NCBI RefSeq assembly: GCF_004010195.1
Contig: NC_057752.1
Coordinates: forward strand, 7,419,337 to 7,459,630
DNA: 40,294 nt
Direction of reading: 5' to 3'
Source of the DNA: Chiloscyllium plagiosum
Taxonomy: Eukaryota
Position 1 is the stretch's first letter. Every line of letters starts with the position of its first letter. The translations under genes and the position numbers were made by a program. Under the pieces are notes generated by a model that was not told the origin of the DNA, did no database searches, and saw only the letters and a list, made by a program, of their open reading frames with translations. Shown here piece after piece: positions 7,459 through 39,761 of the stretch.

Positions 7459-7657
7459 TTTGGAGATGCTGGTGTTGGACTGGGGTGAACAAAGTCAGAA
7501 GTCACACGACACAAAGTTATAGTCCAACAGGTTTATTTGAAATCAAAAGCTTTCTGAGCACTGCCCCTTCATCAGGTGTAGTCACTTCATCCGACGAAGG
7601 GGCAGTGCTCCTAAAGCTTGTGATTTCAAATAAACCTGTTGGACTATATCCTCGTGT
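7459..7657. mobile_element. fold-back (hairpin) Penelope-like insertion with 12-bp TSD
   Basis: ~70-bp inverted arms (about 7508-7577 and 7589-7658). TSD CATATAGATTGG at 7447-7458 and 7658-7669. Confidence 0.8.
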
Positions 7658-8287
7658 CATATAGATTGGGCAAAACAAGTCAGTAACAATGCCACAGAGG
7701 AAGAATTCCTGGAGCACATGTGAGATGGTTTTCTGTATCAATACACTGAGGAACCAACTCGAGAACAAGCTATCCTAGACTGGGTATTGTGTAATGAGAA
7801 AGGAATAATTAGCAATCCAGCCTTGTGTGGCCCCTTGGGGAAGAGTGACCATAATATGATAGGATTCTTCATTAAGATGGGAAGTGATTTAGTTGATTCT
7901 GAAACTACAGTCTTGAATGTAAATAAAGCAAGCTACAATGGTAAGAAGCGCAAGCTGGGTATGATAAATTGGGCAATGTTGCTTAAAGGGATGATGTCTG
8001 ATAGGCAATGGCAAACATTTAAAGATTGCATGGAGGAACTACAACAATTGTTCATTCCTGTCTGGCTCAAAAATAAAATGGGAAAGGTGGTCCGACCATA
8101 TCTAACAAGGGAAATTAGAGACAGCATTAGATCTGGGAAAGGAGCACACAAATTGGCCAAAACAGTAGCAGACCTGAGGATTGAGAGCAGTTTAGTTTTA
8201 AAAGAACAAAAGGAGACCAATTAAGAGGGGAAAATAGAGTATAAAGCTTGTGGAGAGCATATAAATTGATGATTAAAGCTTCTATAG

Positions 8288-22862: not shown

Positions 22863-23207
22863 AAAGTTTGTGAGAAGATTTGGAGCTCGGGTGCTCATTG
22901 TTGTGGTTCTGTTCGCCGAGCTGGGAATTTGTGTTGCAGACATTTCATCCCCTGTCTAGGTGACATCCTCAGTGCTTGGGAGCCTCCTGTGAAGTGCTTC
23001 TGTGATGTTTCCTCCGGCATTTATAGTGGTTTGCCTCTGCCGCTTCCGGTTGTCAGTTCCAGCTGTCCGCTGCAGTGGCCGGTATATTGGGTCCAGGTCG
23101 ATGTGCTTGTTGATAGAATCTGTGGATGAGTGCCATGTCTCTAGGAATTCCCTGGCTGTTCTTTGTTTGGCTTGTCCTATAATAGTAGTGTTGTCCCAGT
23201 CGAACTG
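22863..23207 (-). mobile_element. Penelope-like element 3' end (GIY-YIG C-terminus plus pLTR)
   Basis: FDWDNTTIIGQAKQRTAREFLETWHSSTDSINKHIDLDPIYRPL; near-identical to 24700-25043. Confidence 0.88.
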
Positions 23208-23227
23208 CAACAACTGACAAGCAACAT

Positions 23228-23704
23228 GAAACTTGGAAGAGTTCAGAAAAGATTTACAAGGATGTTGCCAGAATTGGAGGGTTTGAGCTATAAGGATATA
23301 AGACTGGGGCTATTTTCCCTGGAGTGTCGGAGGCTGAGGGGTGACCATATAGAAGTTTGTAAAATCATGAGGGGCATGGATAGGATGAATAATCAAGGTC
23401 TTTTCCCTAGGGTAGGGGATTCTAAAACTAGAGGGCATAGGTTTAAGGTGAGTGGGAAAAAGCTTTTTCACGTAGTCAGTGGTGCATGTATGGAGTGAAC
23501 TGCCAGAGGAGGCAGTGGAGGCTGGTACAATTACAACATTTAAAAAGCATCTGGATGGGTAAATGAATAGGAAAGATTTAGAGGGACATGGGCCAAATGG
23601 TGGCCAATGGGACTAGATTAAGTTAGGATATCTGGTCGGCATGGATGAGTTGAACTGAAGGGTCTGTTTCCATGCTGTACAACTCTATGACTCTATGACT
23701 CTAA
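23228..23704 (+). mobile_element. CR1 3' end with (CTCTATGA)n tail
   Basis: RVQKRFTRMLPELEGLSY...LGLFSLE...RLRGD. Confidence 0.9.
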
Positions 23705-24145
23705 TTGACGGCATGAATAGAGATTAATGAGTATGATCTTATTGCCATTATGGAGACATAGTCATGATGAGATCAAACCTGGGAACTAAATATTCAGGAG
23801 TATGTGACTTTTTGAAAGGACAGGTAGGAAGGAAAGAGTGGTGGGGTAATATTGTTGGTACAGGATGGAGTAAGTATGATAACCAACAATGATCTTAGAT
23901 TGGAAGACATAGAATCCAGACGGATGCAGGCAAGAAAGAAAAAAGGGCAAGAAGACAATTGTAGAAAAGTTTGTAACCCACTAAGAGTAGCTATGTGGTG
24001 GGATTGAGATAAATCAGGAGTTAATGAGGACATGTAACAAAGGCAGAACATTAATTATGGGTGACATTAAGCTTTATGGAGATTGGGGAAAATCAAATTG
24101 GCAATGTTAGCCATAAGGAAGAATTCATAGAGTATATTCAAGAAA

Positions 24146-25045
24146 TTTGTGTTGCAGACGTTTCGTCCCCTGTCTAGGTGACATCCTCAGTGCTTGGGAG
24201 CCTCCTATGAAGCGCTTCTGTGATGTTTCCTCTGGCATTTATAGTGGTTTATATCTGCCGCTTCCGGTTGTCAGTTCCAGCTGTCCGCTGCAGTGGCCGG
24301 TATATTGGGTCCAGGTCGATGTGCTTATTGATTGAATCAGTGAATGGAGAATTCACCACAAAGGTATATAGGAAAGCCACACACACAGACCAAGTCCTAA
24401 ACTACGAAAGCAACCACCCCAACACACACAAAAGAAGTTGCATCAAGACACTGTTCAAAAGGGCCACAACACACTGCAGTACACCAGAACTGCAAAAAGA
24501 GGATGAAGAACACCTATACAATGTATTCGCCAAAAACGGATACCCCCGCAATTTCATCAACAGATGCCTAAGGAAAAGACAACGGAACTGTTGACAAACA
24601 GGAAGACAGCTAACGATCTGCATCCATGAACACCAACTAGCCACGAAACGACACGACCAGCTATCCTTAGTAGCCAGACACGCAGATGACAAGCAACATG
24701 AATTCTACTGGGACAACACTACTATTATAGGACAAGCCAAACAGAGAACAGCCAGGGAATGCCTAGCGCCATGGCACTCATCCACAGATTCAATCAATAA
24801 ACACATCGACCTGGACCCAATATACCGACCACTGCAGCGGACAGCTGGAACTGACAACCGGAAGCGGCAGATTCAAACCACTATAAATGCCGGAGGAAAG
24901 ATCACAGAAGCGCTTCACAGGAGGCTCCCAAGCACTGAGGATGTCACCTAGACAGGGGACGAAACGTCTGCAACACAAATTCCCAGCTCGGCGAACAGAA
25001 CCACAACAACGAGCACCCGAGTTACAAATCTTCTCCCAAACTTAC
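24146..25045 (+). mobile_element. Penelope-like element: inverted terminal arm, RT thumb fragment, GIY-YIG fragment and pLTR; with TSD
   Basis: TTKVYRKATHTDQVLNYESNHP...NGYPRNFI; GRQLTICIHEH...WDNTTII. About 195-bp inverted arms (24144-24339 vs 24786-24982). TSD ATTCAAGAAA at 24136-24145 and 25046-25055. Confidence 0.92.
24932..24971 (+). ncRNA. minimal type-I hammerhead ribozyme motif
   Basis: GCA-CUGAGGA-U-GUCACCU(AGAC)AGGGGAC-GAAAC-GUC-UGC. An inverse copy lies at ~24154-24193. Confidence 0.7.
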
Positions 25046-35019: not shown

Positions 35020-35337
35020 AATAGCGAATTTTGAGAAGATTTGTGGCTCAGGTTGAGGCTCTGGATGTAGGTTTGCTCGCTGAGCTGTTAAGTTTGGTTT
35101 CAGACATTTTGTCACCATACTAGGTAACATCATCAGTGAGCCTCCGGATGAAGCACTGTTGGTATGGCCCGCTTTTTATTTATGTGTTTAGGTTTCCTTG
35201 AGGAAAGCTAAACATATAAGTAAAAAGCAGGCCATACCACTAGTGCTTCATCTGGAGGCTCACTGATGATATTATCTAGTATGGTGATGAAACGTCTGAA
35301 ACCGAACCTTCAAGCTCAGTGAGCAAACCTACATCCA
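35020..35337. mobile_element. fold-back Penelope-like insertion with 10-bp TSD
   Basis: ~138-bp arms (35061-35198 / 35201-35338) around a 2-nt loop. TSD GTAAATTACT at 35010-35019 and 35338-35347. Hammerhead core CTGATGA...GAAACGTC at 35263-35296. Confidence 0.88.
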
Positions 35338-36067
35338 GTAAATTACTGACTCTGATATGTGCTGGACTTGTGATAGAGGAAACTTGTTTTCATTTTGTCA
35401 AACGTGGATTAAGGATTGAGTGAAGTCAGAAAAGCTGTGTTTTATTTTCATCACATGGAACTGATGGAATGCTAAACAGAACCACCCTGTACTATATGGC
35501 ACCTTTAATGTAGTGAAACATCCCAGTGTATTTCATAAGGGCGTCATCAAGCAAAATTTGAAATTGAGTCATGTCAGAAGATATTTGGACCCCAGAGAGG
35601 TTTTAAGGAGTATCTTAAATGGAGGAAAGCAAAGTGGGAATGTTTAGAGAGGAAATTCCAGACCTTAAGGCCTTATTAATTCCTCAAAGAAATCCAATTG
35701 AAGCTTTCATTAACAAACCCATGCTGACTGTTCTTGATTAATTTATGCCTCTAAATGATAATTAATAGACAATGATTTCCAATAATTTGCCTAGCAAATG
35801 GCTGTTAACGGAGGTTAAAATGGCTAGCTTACAATTACCTGAACTATGTCATTTTAAAGAACAGTATAAAGTTTTTAAGTCCTCAAGTCATCTGATACCA
35901 TGACAGGGAGGGTTGGTAAATGATGGTCAGAACCTCCACTATTTCTTGTTTCTCTTCACAACTTAGGATGCATTTCATCCAGGTGTGATCATTTATCGAC
36001 TTGCAAACATGCTAACCCCATTAATATTTTGACATTCCATATCTGGTTGTTTCATCTGCTAGCCCTC

Positions 36068-36770
36068 CCCAGTTGACAGAATTGCTAGATGGATGTTACA
36101 AGGAAGAAAAATAGAGGTACAAGGGATTAAAAGTACTACCATGTTAGCAGATAACTTAATTTAGCATGAGACACCCTATGACTGTCAGATGGTGATAGCA
36201 AATGATCCCAAGGGATCGTTTGTATCAAAACAAAAAGGAGGTAATACTGGTAAAGAGACCATAGGGAATACCTAAGACAAGAGAAAGACGGAGATCGAAA
36301 TAGAAGAACAGCAAAGAAATACCAAATGACCCTTAACATTTTTTGTTTATGGCTCTTCATCTGCACAGGACGGAGAACAGAGAACTGGCTGTGGAATCTA
36401 TACAGATGATGAACAAGGTTGGGAAGTGGATAGTATAGCTCTCAAACTGCCAATAACCATAAGTGCTCAAGCAGCTGAGTTGGCAGCAGTGGCATATTTA
36501 GTGAGCCACCCAGATAACATCCCCCCAGGATTTGTTATCTATTCAGATAGTATGTATGTCTGCAACAGTCTGATGGAATACTTACCCTTGTGGGAGGCTA
36601 GAGGCTTTGTGTCAGCGATGGGAAGGTCCTACCGTCTGCCCCATTGCTGAAGTACATCTTTGATAAGGCGAAAGGATAAAAATATGGAGTGATGAAAGTG
36701 AAAGCTCATTTTAAGTTATCATTGGAGGAAAACAGAAAAGCAGATGAATTAGCCAAACAAGGGCACTAGC
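36068..36770 (+). pseudogene. pol: pol: end of connection/tether domain and retroviral-type RNase H
   Basis: RIARWMLQGRKIEV...LADNL; FFVYGSS (first Asp lost), SAQAAELAAV, IYSDSMYV, WEARGFVSA, KVKAH, NRKADELAKQG. Confidence 0.85.
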
Positions 36771-36829
36771 AAGAGAAGAATGGCAGCTGCAGATTGGGGA
36801 AATAAGAGTGCAGAAAGAGAAAGAAGTGG

Positions 36830-38085
36830 CCCCAATTGATTTAGCAGGAGAACAAAGAAAAGATAAAGTGTTATAAAAAGTATTGGAAGGGAAGGAGTCA
36901 GAGGAATATACAGAATAAAAAGGAATACATGTAAAAGAGGGTGTGGTACTGTATGAAAGGAAATGTGTAGCAGCAGAAAAGAAAAGGAATCAGATGATTT
37001 ATTGATATCATATATATGTGGGCTTCAAGGGTCGGAAAACACCTTGGACAGGTTGAAGGAGGTATGTTGGTGGCCACGAATAAAAGGGGATGTGGAACAT
37101 TATTTGAAAAATAGTCTGATATGTGCCCTAAATAGCCCCAACAAAAATGGGAAGAAGGAAGCCCTTAGACACACAAGGCCAGTAGACGGGCCCTGGACAA
37201 ATCTGTGAATTAACTTTGTGGGTCCCCTATCCCCAACTGCAGGAAGATGTAAGGCAAAAGTGAGGACTGCTGATGCTGGAAATCAGAGTCTAGATTAGAG
37301 TGGTGCTGGAAAAGCACAGCAGATCAGGCAGCATCCGAGGAGCAGGAAAATCGACGTCTCGGGCAAAAGCCCTTCATCAGGAATCTATTCCTGAAGAAGG
37401 GCTTTTGCCCAAAACGTCAATTTTCCTGCTCCTCGGATGCTGCCTGACCTGCTGTGCTTTTCCAGCACCACTCTAACCTCGACTCTGCAGGAAGATGTAA
37501 GTGTACTCTGGTGATAGTGGATACCTTCACCAAATTGGTAGAAGTGTTTCCACCTTGAACTGATACCGCTAAAATCATGTTGAAGATCCTGTTAAAAAAG
37601 GTTTTAACTCATCGGAACTTACGAAGGAATATTGAATCAGATCAAGGGAGGCATTTTACAGCCCAGGTGATGCAGAATGTCATGATACCGCTAGGGATAA
37701 AACAAAGGTTTCACATATCCTATCGGCCCTTATCCAGTAGGATAGTCAAAAGGGTGAGTCAAACTTTGAAGACTATGTTGGCCAAAATGGTGCAGCAGCA
37801 GCAGGCCACTTAGCTGATGGTACTTCCTTATGTCCTGATGATAGTAAGAAGCACTGTAGCACCCTCTACAGGGTTTACACCATATAGGTTGATGAAGGGT
37901 CGAGGGATGTGTGACCTGGAGGCACTGCTAGGACTAGACCTATCTGAGCCAGAAATAGGTGGAATAATGAAAGATAAGTGGATATAACAGCTGGTTGAGA
38001 ATGTAAAAGAAACAAATTCTGTGGTCCCAAATAATATGGGAAGGAAGAAGCAACAAAGTAAGGCCCACTTTGACTCCAAGACAAA
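36830..38085 (+). pseudogene. pol: pol: integrase, interrupted by a hairpin PLE
   Basis: TLDRLKEVCWWPRIKGDVEHYLKNSLIC; GPWTNL*INFVGPL; LVIVDTFTKLVEVF; IESDQGRHFT; FHISYRPLSSRIVKR; TGFTPY. Confidence 0.9.
37254..37484. mobile_element. fold-back Penelope-like insertion with 17-bp TSD
   Basis: ~100-bp arms around a 2-nt loop (37385-37386). TSD CTGCAGGAAGATGTAAG at 37237-37253 and 37485-37501. Confidence 0.9.
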
Positions 38086-38099
38086 GCCAAATGTATCCA

Positions 38100-39640
38100 G
38101 GAAGGATGGGGACAATTTGGATAGGTGCCATGGGCCAGGAACTTTCATGCTGTACAGAAATAGTCCACCAATTATCATGATCACAACCCCGAAAACTACG
38201 TCAGAATCACAGTGTAGTGAATCTCAGAGAGATACAAGAGGGGTAGGGTAAGAAACGGAAAAGGTGTTTACTCTCGTACCAGGGTATAGACACGTACAGG
38301 TAATGTTTAACTTGATAGACATACAAATGCCATCCTGGTGCGATAGACAAGTCTGGCAACTCTTTGTCCACTTACTCTAGAGACAACTTGGTCATAGTGA
38401 ATTTACATCAGAAAAGAAAAGGAGGAAGAGAGGATTGATGGAGTTAACGGGAGCAGGCAACGCACCAGGTGACTATTAATACCCTCGACATAGCAGAAAT
38501 GGAGGTTCAGTTAAGTTCCCTCCAGGAAAAAATGAGGATAATATTAGGCCAGGAGTACCAGGATCAAGAAAAGACAGGTAGGATAGTACAACAAGCGGCA
38601 CAGGTAGCGCTACCAAAATGTTGAGACCCCTTCAGAATATTACCAACGATATTACAGACAGGATGGCTTATGAGGTAACCCGCAGTAATACAGTGATATT
38701 TTGTTCTATATATATTAGTTAGCTCCTGTCTATGGTTAGCACAAATATGTTGCAATTAGATGCTCATAGAGTACCAGACTGGGTATTGGATAAATAACTT
38801 AGGACATGGGTGAGTGGGAAAATGCCTCTGTGTCACGTCAGGAGCCTCACTCTCACCAACCAGGCCTTGAGCACCAGTGATGATAATAACGGTCAGCTTT
38901 ACATTGGTACGATGCTTCATATACCCAATCATGGGGACAATCTGGCACAACCCTTAATGCGAGTTTATAATGTGTAAATACCATGAAGGAACTTGGACAT
39001 CATTAAGTAACCCACCAATCCATCCTATAGTTCTAGAGGTATCTAAAAATGGGGGTGGATTTGTCCTAATCCCATCAAGGGGAAAACCAGTGGGCATGTT
39101 CCAGAAGAAATGATTAAAGATGAACTAACTCAGCGTGGATTTGCCTATTATGAGAACTTTTCTTAAGTATAACTTAGTGAGAGACACCTACTATGTCGCC
39201 ACAGCAGCCTCAGGATACCAAAAAAGAAGGACATGGACAGAATCTGGCTATCAGCAATATCTCTTCTGACTTAACCAGTAGCCACCAAATTCTGCTGAAG
39301 TCAGAATCCAATGAGATACTGAGCATAACTCGAATCCATCCACCCAAATGATACAGATGATGATTTATGGCAGTTTGTAACTACACCTGGGTGAAGATCA
39401 TTCTCAAGGCAAAGGAAGTTATCCATAAATGGGTTATACATGAGAAAGAGATTAAAACACATGCAGAAGAGGCAGATAGGAACTTGCAGGCTCCAAGTTT
39501 CTGGAGCAAAATTTGGAATTGGGGACTGAACATTCAGATCCATCTGTGGATCAGAATTGTTCTCATGTTGTACTACAATTTGTTATATTTATTGTTGTAA
39601 TAGACTTGTTTGTTTGTTAAAATGCAAAGTTAAGAAATGG
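38100..39640 (+). pseudogene. env: env-like class I fusion glycoprotein remnant
   Basis: KKRRKR|GLMELTGAGNA at 38414-38460; heptad INTLDIAEMEVQLSSLQEKM; RVPDWV; IGTMLHIP...PLMRVYNV; C-terminal helix, then SFWSKIWNWG and a hydrophobic segment. Confidence 0.7.
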
Positions 39641-39761
39641 AAGGGTCTGACAACAGGGATTGGTCTGAGATACCAAAACATAGCTCTTATGAAGCAGGGT
39701 TTGTAATAGTTGCTTACTCTCGGATAGGAATAATATAGACATAGCTAGTTCAAAGTATTTA

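Follow-up and report, generated by a model that had tools for sequence, protein, structure and literature searches.

Several described groups of retroviruses and endogenous retroviruses (ERVs) stand close to the element considered here, a decayed provirus in a 40,294-nucleotide stretch of the genome of the carpet shark Chiloscyllium plagiosum (contig NC_057752.1, positions 7,419,337 to 7,459,630; the whole stretch is called the window below). Early-branching ERVs, related to snakehead retrovirus (SnRV) or assigned to class III, are known in cartilaginous fish (PMC4422223, PMC6001957, PMC8922424, PMC4977317, bioRxiv 2023.10.17.562709), where most ERV reverse transcriptases (RTs) fall into clade III (bioRxiv 2023.10.17.562709). 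Names in use include clade Huo (Xu et al. 2018, PMC6001957), CmiERV lineage I (PMC4422223), and a divergent clade from coelacanth, amphibians and fish (Hayward et al. 2015, as cited in PMC4977317). Foamy-like ERVs (FLERVs) have been reported from sharks as well (PMC5512871, PMC10699275). The envelope protein (Env) of foamy viruses has been linked to F, the fusion protein of Mononegavirales (PMC11468914), and F-type Envs are widespread in invertebrate Gypsy elements (bioRxiv 2023.10.26.564294). For lokiretroviruses (PMC7947760, PMC9040795), Wang and Han preferred an origin independent of that of retroviruses, because the Envs of lokiretroviruses and canonical retroviruses share no detectable similarity (PMC9040795).

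A sequence-only reading of the window had proposed a cartilaginous-fish lokiretrovirus or a new related lineage. The window element is dead: it belongs to an old provirus family with many copies and is itself 5'-truncated, internally deleted and decayed. We hold it to be very probable that this carpet-shark family combines a canonical RT with an envelope of likely F type, that is, a class I fusion protein with homology to the Env of lokiretroviruses.

With clade Huo and the SnRV-related class III ERVs the family shares a canonical RT with SnRV-like motifs, a CCHC gag knuckle resembling that of SnRV, hosts among sharks, coelacanth and frogs, and, by hhalign, an Env that may be homologous to the SnRV membrane subunit. 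It differs from SnRV in its integrase and its tether (the degenerate RNase H domain), both much closer to the "NYNRIN-like" Pols of frogs and coelacanth. Lokiretroviruses resemble it in their gag-pol-env layout between long terminal repeats (LTRs), in a tether followed by a second RNase H, in an F-like Env with an early furin site and in a similar integrase type, but their RT is sister to those of all canonical retroviruses, among which the family falls, and the RT motif differs; some lokiretroviruses also carry an smc-like gene. Foamy viruses and FLERVs (PMC5512871) have an F-related Env fold like that of the family, and the salamander element NviFLERV-1 likewise has a tRNA-Asn primer-binding site (PBS), whereas the family carries a CCHC knuckle and a tether far less degenerate than that of foamy Pol. 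ERV3 and ERV4 of crocodilians and turtles (PMC4299795) are also early-branching ERVs outside classes I and II that carry env, but they have 5-bp target duplications and neither a gag zinc finger nor a GPY motif (Table 1 of that paper), whereas the window family has 4-bp duplications, the knuckle and a GPY-like stretch.

Placement of the family by RT and RNase H

The RTs of other copies of the family fall inside canonical Retroviridae in all five trees that we built (100/98-99), and lokiretroviruses stand apart (100/98-99). These trees had 48, 31, 43, 30 and 28 rows after near-duplicates and short rows had been dropped. The rows came from Pols in databases, from foamy, gamma and beta-type Pols in IMG/VR, from three Loki-type Pols identified by motifs that they have in common with named lokiretrovirus rows, and from Gypsy outgroups; named ERV-L, CmiERV, Odin and Gmr1 elements, fish and shark FLERVs, and lenti and delta viruses lay outside the sampling. 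Approximately unbiased (AU) tests rejected a union with lokiretroviruses (p=0.004 twice) and a direct sisterhood with foamy viruses (p=0.004); they did not reject a clade of the family's kin with SnRV (p=0.14 and 0.19), one with foamy viruses (p=0.08), or a foamy-first root (p=0.07). The copies have the canonical RT motif PQG rather than the PFG of named lokiretrovirus RTs (PMC7947760 supplement). Membership in the lokiretroviruses, as first proposed, thus fails at the level of RT, and the proposed new lineage survives only as an early-branching canonical retrovirus.

Within the canonical retroviruses, SnRV, foamy, epsilon and gamma viruses (plus beta in one tree) unite to the exclusion of the window family in two trees, one of them under a mixture model (95/94 and 96/96). 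Support for this grouping of SnRV, foamy and epsilon/gamma viruses is 90/94 and 88/95 in two other trees, and the grouping is absent from one; SnRV does not join the window family in the free RT trees. Among solved structures the RT profile scores 88 bits on foamy Pol, 52 on that of murine leukaemia virus (MLV) and 46 on Ty3, and in database searches it retrieves SnRV Pol and the frog and coelacanth "NYNRIN-like" Pols, for which we found no classification in the NYNRIN paper (PMC9447858). The family falls with the "NYNRIN-like" Pols in a poorly resolved early-branching group and is probably best filed with the class III or clade Huo grade. A Gypsy (Metaviridae) affiliation is contradicted by the RT trees, among whose rows Gmr1 and Odin do not figure, and by the dual RNase H; the earlier inference of a retrovirus-type rather than Gypsy arrangement is borne out by translation and Pfam.

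The window copy itself contributes its second RNase H, which matches Pfam RNase_H (E 1.3e-9) and finds its best Protein Data Bank (PDB) match in foamy virus RNase H (E 2.7e-5). The sequence-only reading had looked to trees of RNase H and integrase as a check, and in the first of these the window sequence pairs as sister with P0006 (100/98), a relative that belongs by RT to the family's own group; it lies on the side of the tree that holds Loki and foamy viruses (90/85). The tether piece of the family scores 72-94 bits on its kin versus 38-49 on lokiretroviruses; a tether profile built from the relatives together with lokiretroviruses gives about 200 bits on the relatives and 12-30 on foamy viruses.

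The envelope and its relatives

The Env of this group has a short surface part, an early furin site, a heptad region, a long beta-rich ectodomain, a second heptad region and a membrane anchor. Among 1.84 billion representatives we found 19 relatives, of which 15 were looked up; all 14 that were named come from sharks or rays, in agreement with the chondrichthyan host that had been deduced from surrounding repeats. With a 99% match between one of its genes and a Chiloscyllium punctatum protein, the genome is that of a carpet shark, likely a bamboo shark. The env pieces of the window family share 52-60% identity with a protein of the horn shark and 20-48% with most other shark Env-like proteins, and the family's own env profile scores 63-98 bits on a younger ERV family of the same genome and reaches P0160, a distant relative, at E 1e-4.

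The link to lokiretroviruses is carried by a profile of shark Envs, A6, made from 26 relatives (15 database proteins and 11 loci of the younger family) and holding no pieces of the window family. Against the Env of two lokiretrovirus loci it gives an hhalign probability of 97.8% (E 1.2e-12, 294 columns, 16% identity) with a score of 102.8, where 20 shuffles reached at most 22; by HMMER it scores 49-50 bits on Loki Env (maximum of 200 shuffles, 5.0). Lokiretrovirus and SnRV Envs compared directly give E 0.46. A model of P0160 matches, among the PDB rows shown, only paramyxovirus or pneumovirus F and foamy Env (48 matches at E<=0.001), with Z 5.8-7.2; prefusion foamy Env is matched at Z 6.7, with an rmsd of 4.2 over 123 residues. 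In the ESM Atlas the top match stood at 0.95, with Fusion_gly in 21% and Baculo_F in 11% of members. The suspected kinship of this Env to Loki Env and to Mononegavirales F is borne out through related shark Envs and is marginal for the family's own pieces. For the shark Envs at large the F type has good support; for the window copy we infer it, and the degraded env of the window family is connected with Loki Env for the most part indirectly.

Other searches returned less. No Pfam family matched the window env at E<=1 in any of its three forward frames, and no relevant one appeared in all three forward frames of env from the window and five other copies. Foamy and MLV Env fragments scored no more than 3 bits on the Env profiles, and the family's env pieces gave E 0.15 against SnRV Env by hhalign. 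A word-based search with the Env alignment, by its method weak evidence, found two proteins only and no Loki, frog or fish Env; IMG/VR held no Loki relative of P0028.

Related envelopes turned up elsewhere. The younger ERV family, much younger than that of the window and with a homologous F-type env, lies on many chromosomes (L129-L139, L142-L150), and its RT is on a different canonical branch. The membrane subunit of SnRV Env (L062:6131-9532) has Baculo_F as its top ESM Atlas matches at 0.92, with a low recognition score, and looks F-like; the Env of walleye dermal sarcoma virus also appears in the fold search (E 5e-5). In a sawfish, a protein with a TRP channel annotation (P0154) has a short stretch derived from env close to its N-terminus (E 1e-7), which is either a gene-model artefact or an exonised ERV piece.

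Weighing the alternatives

A number of observations weigh against a canonical family with an F-type, Loki-related Env. The window copy has no RT, so that its placement rests on other copies, from which the RT data are single-frame pieces of 89-130 residues, supplemented by intact relatives. The integrase tree, the other half of the check mentioned above, does not place the window integrase, and it groups the integrases of the frog and coelacanth kin with that of lokiretroviruses (93/93; CGIN1 is not in the tree). The PBS matches the genome's tRNA-Asn at 17 of 18 positions in one of seven copies, the sole clear case, and is not distinguishable from background in five. On the side of Env, the strong Loki scores come from profile A6, whose members are 20-60% identical to the family's pieces; the family's own profile reaches 6.5-6.7 bits on Loki Env (shuffle maximum 4.2) and 0.4 on SnRV Env. 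Profile A6 aligns with SnRV Env by hhalign at 85% (E 6e-6, 284 columns), but the HMMER score lies within the shuffle range. Neither the window env nor P0160 nor SnRV Env matches Pfam Fusion_gly, and a PDB sequence search with the Env alignment gave nothing under E 0.37. The modelled P0160 is a distant relative of the window family, and its model is of low confidence (pLDDT 53, pTM 0.35, TM-scores <=0.27, best Z 7.2 against a tool threshold of 8).

In a recombinant origin, a canonical pol would have acquired env, and perhaps integrase, from a lokiretrovirus, and the shared Env would be silent on common ancestry. These viruses often exchange domains (PMC7947760), the shark profile scores better on the Env of lokiretroviruses than on that of SnRV, and the integrases of the kin group with those of lokiretroviruses. 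Homologous Envs nevertheless occur in at least three separate canonical branches (the window family, the younger family in the same genome and, by hhalign, SnRV), foamy Env is F-like too (PMC11468914 and the matches of the P0160 model), and identity to Loki Env is only 16%; we regard recombination as rather unlikely.

Membership in the reported shark foamy-like ERVs, be it the CmiFLERV/XtrFLERV group, ERV-Spuma-Sca or the cartilaginous-fish endogenous foamy virus (EFV) of Wang, Chen and Cui (2023), would account for foamy viruses being the best solved-structure matches of both RT and RNase H. The tRNA-Asn PBS is shared with NviFLERV-1 (PMC5512871), the kin include a Xenopus Pol, a frog FLERV has been reported to cluster with shark FLERVs, and the AU test tolerates a clade of kin and foamy viruses. 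Direct sisterhood with the mammalian foamy viruses is rejected by the same test, and the two never join in free trees. Foamy Gag is not known to have a CCHC knuckle, whereas the family has one, intact in three of seven copies. By eye, the RT rows of fish FLERVs in the lokiretrovirus supplement also differ in their motifs, and we find this explanation quite improbable.

That the family is a cartilaginous-fish lokiretrovirus, finally, has in its favour the dual RNase H, the homologous Env, the Loki/foamy-side RNase H and the integrases of the kin, but it is refuted at the level of RT by five trees, both AU tests and the PQG motif, the tether piece prefers the kin, and none of six chondrichthyan genomes, three of them carpet sharks, is listed with lokiretroviruses in the supplement of Wang and Han (PMC7947760), so that we consider it extremely improbable.

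The provirus family, its window copy and an intact env

The sequence-only reading had proposed a search for fuller copies, and copies with LTRs, gag, protease and RT are present in the same genome. The pol stretch has 47 matches (40 of 67 candidates were scored), with 67-86% identity for the non-self ones, and we fetched 15 kb around each of 10 of them for comparison. The fuller copies run LTR, PBS, gag, protease, RT, tether, second RNase H, integrase, env, polypurine tract, LTR. One gag knuckle is present, the protease DTG motif was picked up in one copy, and env homology lies within the fetched range in 7 of the 10. LTRs of about 580 bp with TG...CA ends are paired in 4 of the 10 fetched copies, at Kimura two-parameter (K2P) distances of 0.16-0.26. 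Both LTR ends were found at 18 of 29 LTR loci (lengths 496-629 bp), and an exact 4-bp flanking repeat at 6 of these 18, as against a 5- or 6-bp repeat at none; three of the 18 are provirus LTRs, where no flanking repeat is expected, and two are duplicates of each other.

The age of the family would be on the order of 10^8 years, depending on the rate. We did not accept absolute dates from t=d/2u, which gives 160-260 My at 0.5e-9 (the rate assumed in PMC10699275) and 370-590 My at 2.2e-10 (that assumed in PMC4422223). Single contigs under three organism labels span the 5' junction of the window copy, with 5 and 18 differences in about 1090 bases and 48 in 1467; one of them (X1) may be the source genome itself. 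Because the junction is common to three labels, insertion and truncation predate those species.

The features of the window copy are collected in Table 1. The motifs that had been quoted for a tether end, an RNase H, an integrase and an env-like gene are all there, on the + strand and in that order, as translation and the Pfam matches (RNase_H, Integrase_H2C2, rve) attest. In the RNase H, SAQAAEL and YSDS share one frame and KVKAH and KADELAK lie in another, after the break near 36620 (three-frame translation). An insertion had been placed at 37254-37501; it is real, but its true span is the 231 bp up to 37484, and the remainder is one copy of the 17-bp repeat. Its arms (37284-37384 and 37387-37487) are 93% complementary, and more copies occur elsewhere in the window.

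Table 1. Features of the window copy, in window coordinates, and of a stretch shared by fuller copies, in locus coordinates
Feature	Position	Strand	Basis or remark
Inverted 41-bp piece matching leader/gag (5' internal region) in other copies	36036..36076	-	Truncation point; blastn 84-91% to 5/10 fetched copies
End of tether (degenerate RNase H) domain	36076..36165	+	Translation, RIARW near 36080; other copies align from 36076 and extend upstream
Second RNase H, retroviral type	36330..36765	+	Pfam RNase_H; frameshift near 36620; catalytic acidic position substituted; tblastn of intact relatives
Integrase zinc-binding region, decayed	37017..37250	+	Pfam Integrase_H2C2 E 9e-9; tblastn of intact relatives
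17-bp direct repeat, copy 1	37237..37253	+	Borders insertion
Palindromic host repeat, 231 bp, within integrase gene	37254..37484	.	Strand unassigned; not at this site in other copies
17-bp direct repeat, copy 2	37485..37501	+	
Integrase catalytic core and following helix	37499..38085	+	Pfam rve E 3e-9; 3 stops; catalytic positions substituted; 40% identity to P0006
Junction of ~1 kb deletion (integrase C-terminal SH3/GPY-like part and env start)	38078..38091	.	Alignment break vs 4 copies
Env remnant, F type (inferred), multiply frameshifted	38090..39640	+	tblastn of shark Env proteins E 1e-24; family profile
3' untranslated provirus part, then host repeat	39640..39760	+	3' LTR remnant outside window at L041:6681-7109
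~500-bp stretch shared by fuller copies	L025:9000-10000, L033:8580-9700, L035:8500-9600, L027:60-1320		

The copy ends abruptly at its 5' side, with RT, protease, gag and 5' LTR missing, and the rest of the window plus 10 kb upstream holds no family match except short pieces at the 5' junction; the 3' LTR remnant lies some 6.7 kb past the window end. About 1 kb near 38085 is missing relative to four other copies, where the corresponding DNA has weak SH3_Tf2-1 matches (4/4 copies) and a signal-peptide-like stretch. The env remnant keeps a furin-type site at 38420, a heptad region at about 38470-38700 and a transmembrane segment at about 39564-39620. With stops, frameshifts and substituted catalytic positions in its genes, and a CpG observed/expected ratio of 0.28, the window copy is inert and no present function is indicated.

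Several side observations concern the family and its surroundings. Between the integrase end and the signal-like stretch of env, the fuller copies have in common about 500 bp that include a tryptophan-rich reading frame; this might encode a long leader for Env or represent an accessory gene. The frog relative P0005 ends, after its integrase, in an Ig-like stretch (residues 1214-1291, Pfam Ig_3 E 0.012); the copies of the window family have no Ig match. At least five more divergent partial copies (67-72%) lie within about 120 kb at G000:C44:2.33-2.44 Mb (L039, L043-L046), probably through local duplication. Further palindromic repeats stand among the host repeats of the window (35061-35338, 7508-7658 and 22864-25043), together with a 341-bp inverted pair 1.5 kb apart.

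In the working cycle that we propose, reverse transcription was likely primed by tRNA-Asn, and integration would have been the work of the virus's DDE integrase. Furin would cut Env in two, a surface part and a long part anchored in the membrane (fusion peptide, first heptad, beta-rich core, second heptad); the latter would refold in the manner of paramyxovirus F and foamy Env, enabling cell entry. The family likely spread by reinfection, since most copies retain env. In the window copy, the loss of the 5' half, the internal loss of 1 kb, the palindromic insertion and decay came later.

The same shark genome holds an intact env-like open reading frame (ORF) of 754 codons (G000:C6:90924329-90926593; L128:1456-3720), present as a single copy with its next paralogue at 25%. 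It begins right after a splice-acceptor-like site, and no pol-like match lies within about 10 kb on either side. The ORF is 99% identical to a protein of Chiloscyllium punctatum and aligns without gaps to Scyliorhinus torazame (643/754) and Heterodontus francisci (635/754), that is, at 84-88% identity across three shark orders. It is likely a co-opted F-type env, and we treat it as a candidate. A literature search did not show the gene, the main survey of co-opted retroviral genes lying outside that search.

The locus itself is an ordinary dead copy; what it leads to is an early-branching ERV of sharks, canonical by its RT, whose F-type Env connects the Envs of lokiretroviruses and canonical retroviruses. 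We found no publication that links the Env of sharks or of SnRV with F or with the Env of lokiretroviruses, although subscription papers, Repbase or preprint supplements could hold one. Lokiretroviruses and canonical retroviruses likely inherited an F-type envelope from one ancestor. More speculatively, and with clear doubt, the family may be one of the earliest-branching canonical lineages, outside the branch of SnRV, foamy, epsilon, gamma and beta viruses, and may have kept ancestral features: a tether with little degeneration, an integrase like that of lokiretroviruses and an F-type Env intermediate between those of Loki and SnRV. In that case a single gain of Env would precede the split of lokiretroviruses from retroviruses, with Odin losing it and Envs of the short transmembrane (TM) type arising later, and sharks would have co-opted one F-type env before three galeomorph orders diverged. 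A lineage with a canonical RT whose Env family matches Loki Env (E 1.2e-12) and reaches SnRV Env removes the premise on which independent origins were preferred (PMC9040795). The C6 env, if co-opted, would represent a very ancient capture of a fusion gene of non-syncytin type, and taken together with the link between foamy Env and F (PMC11468914), the shark Env makes a single ancient F-type Env directly testable.

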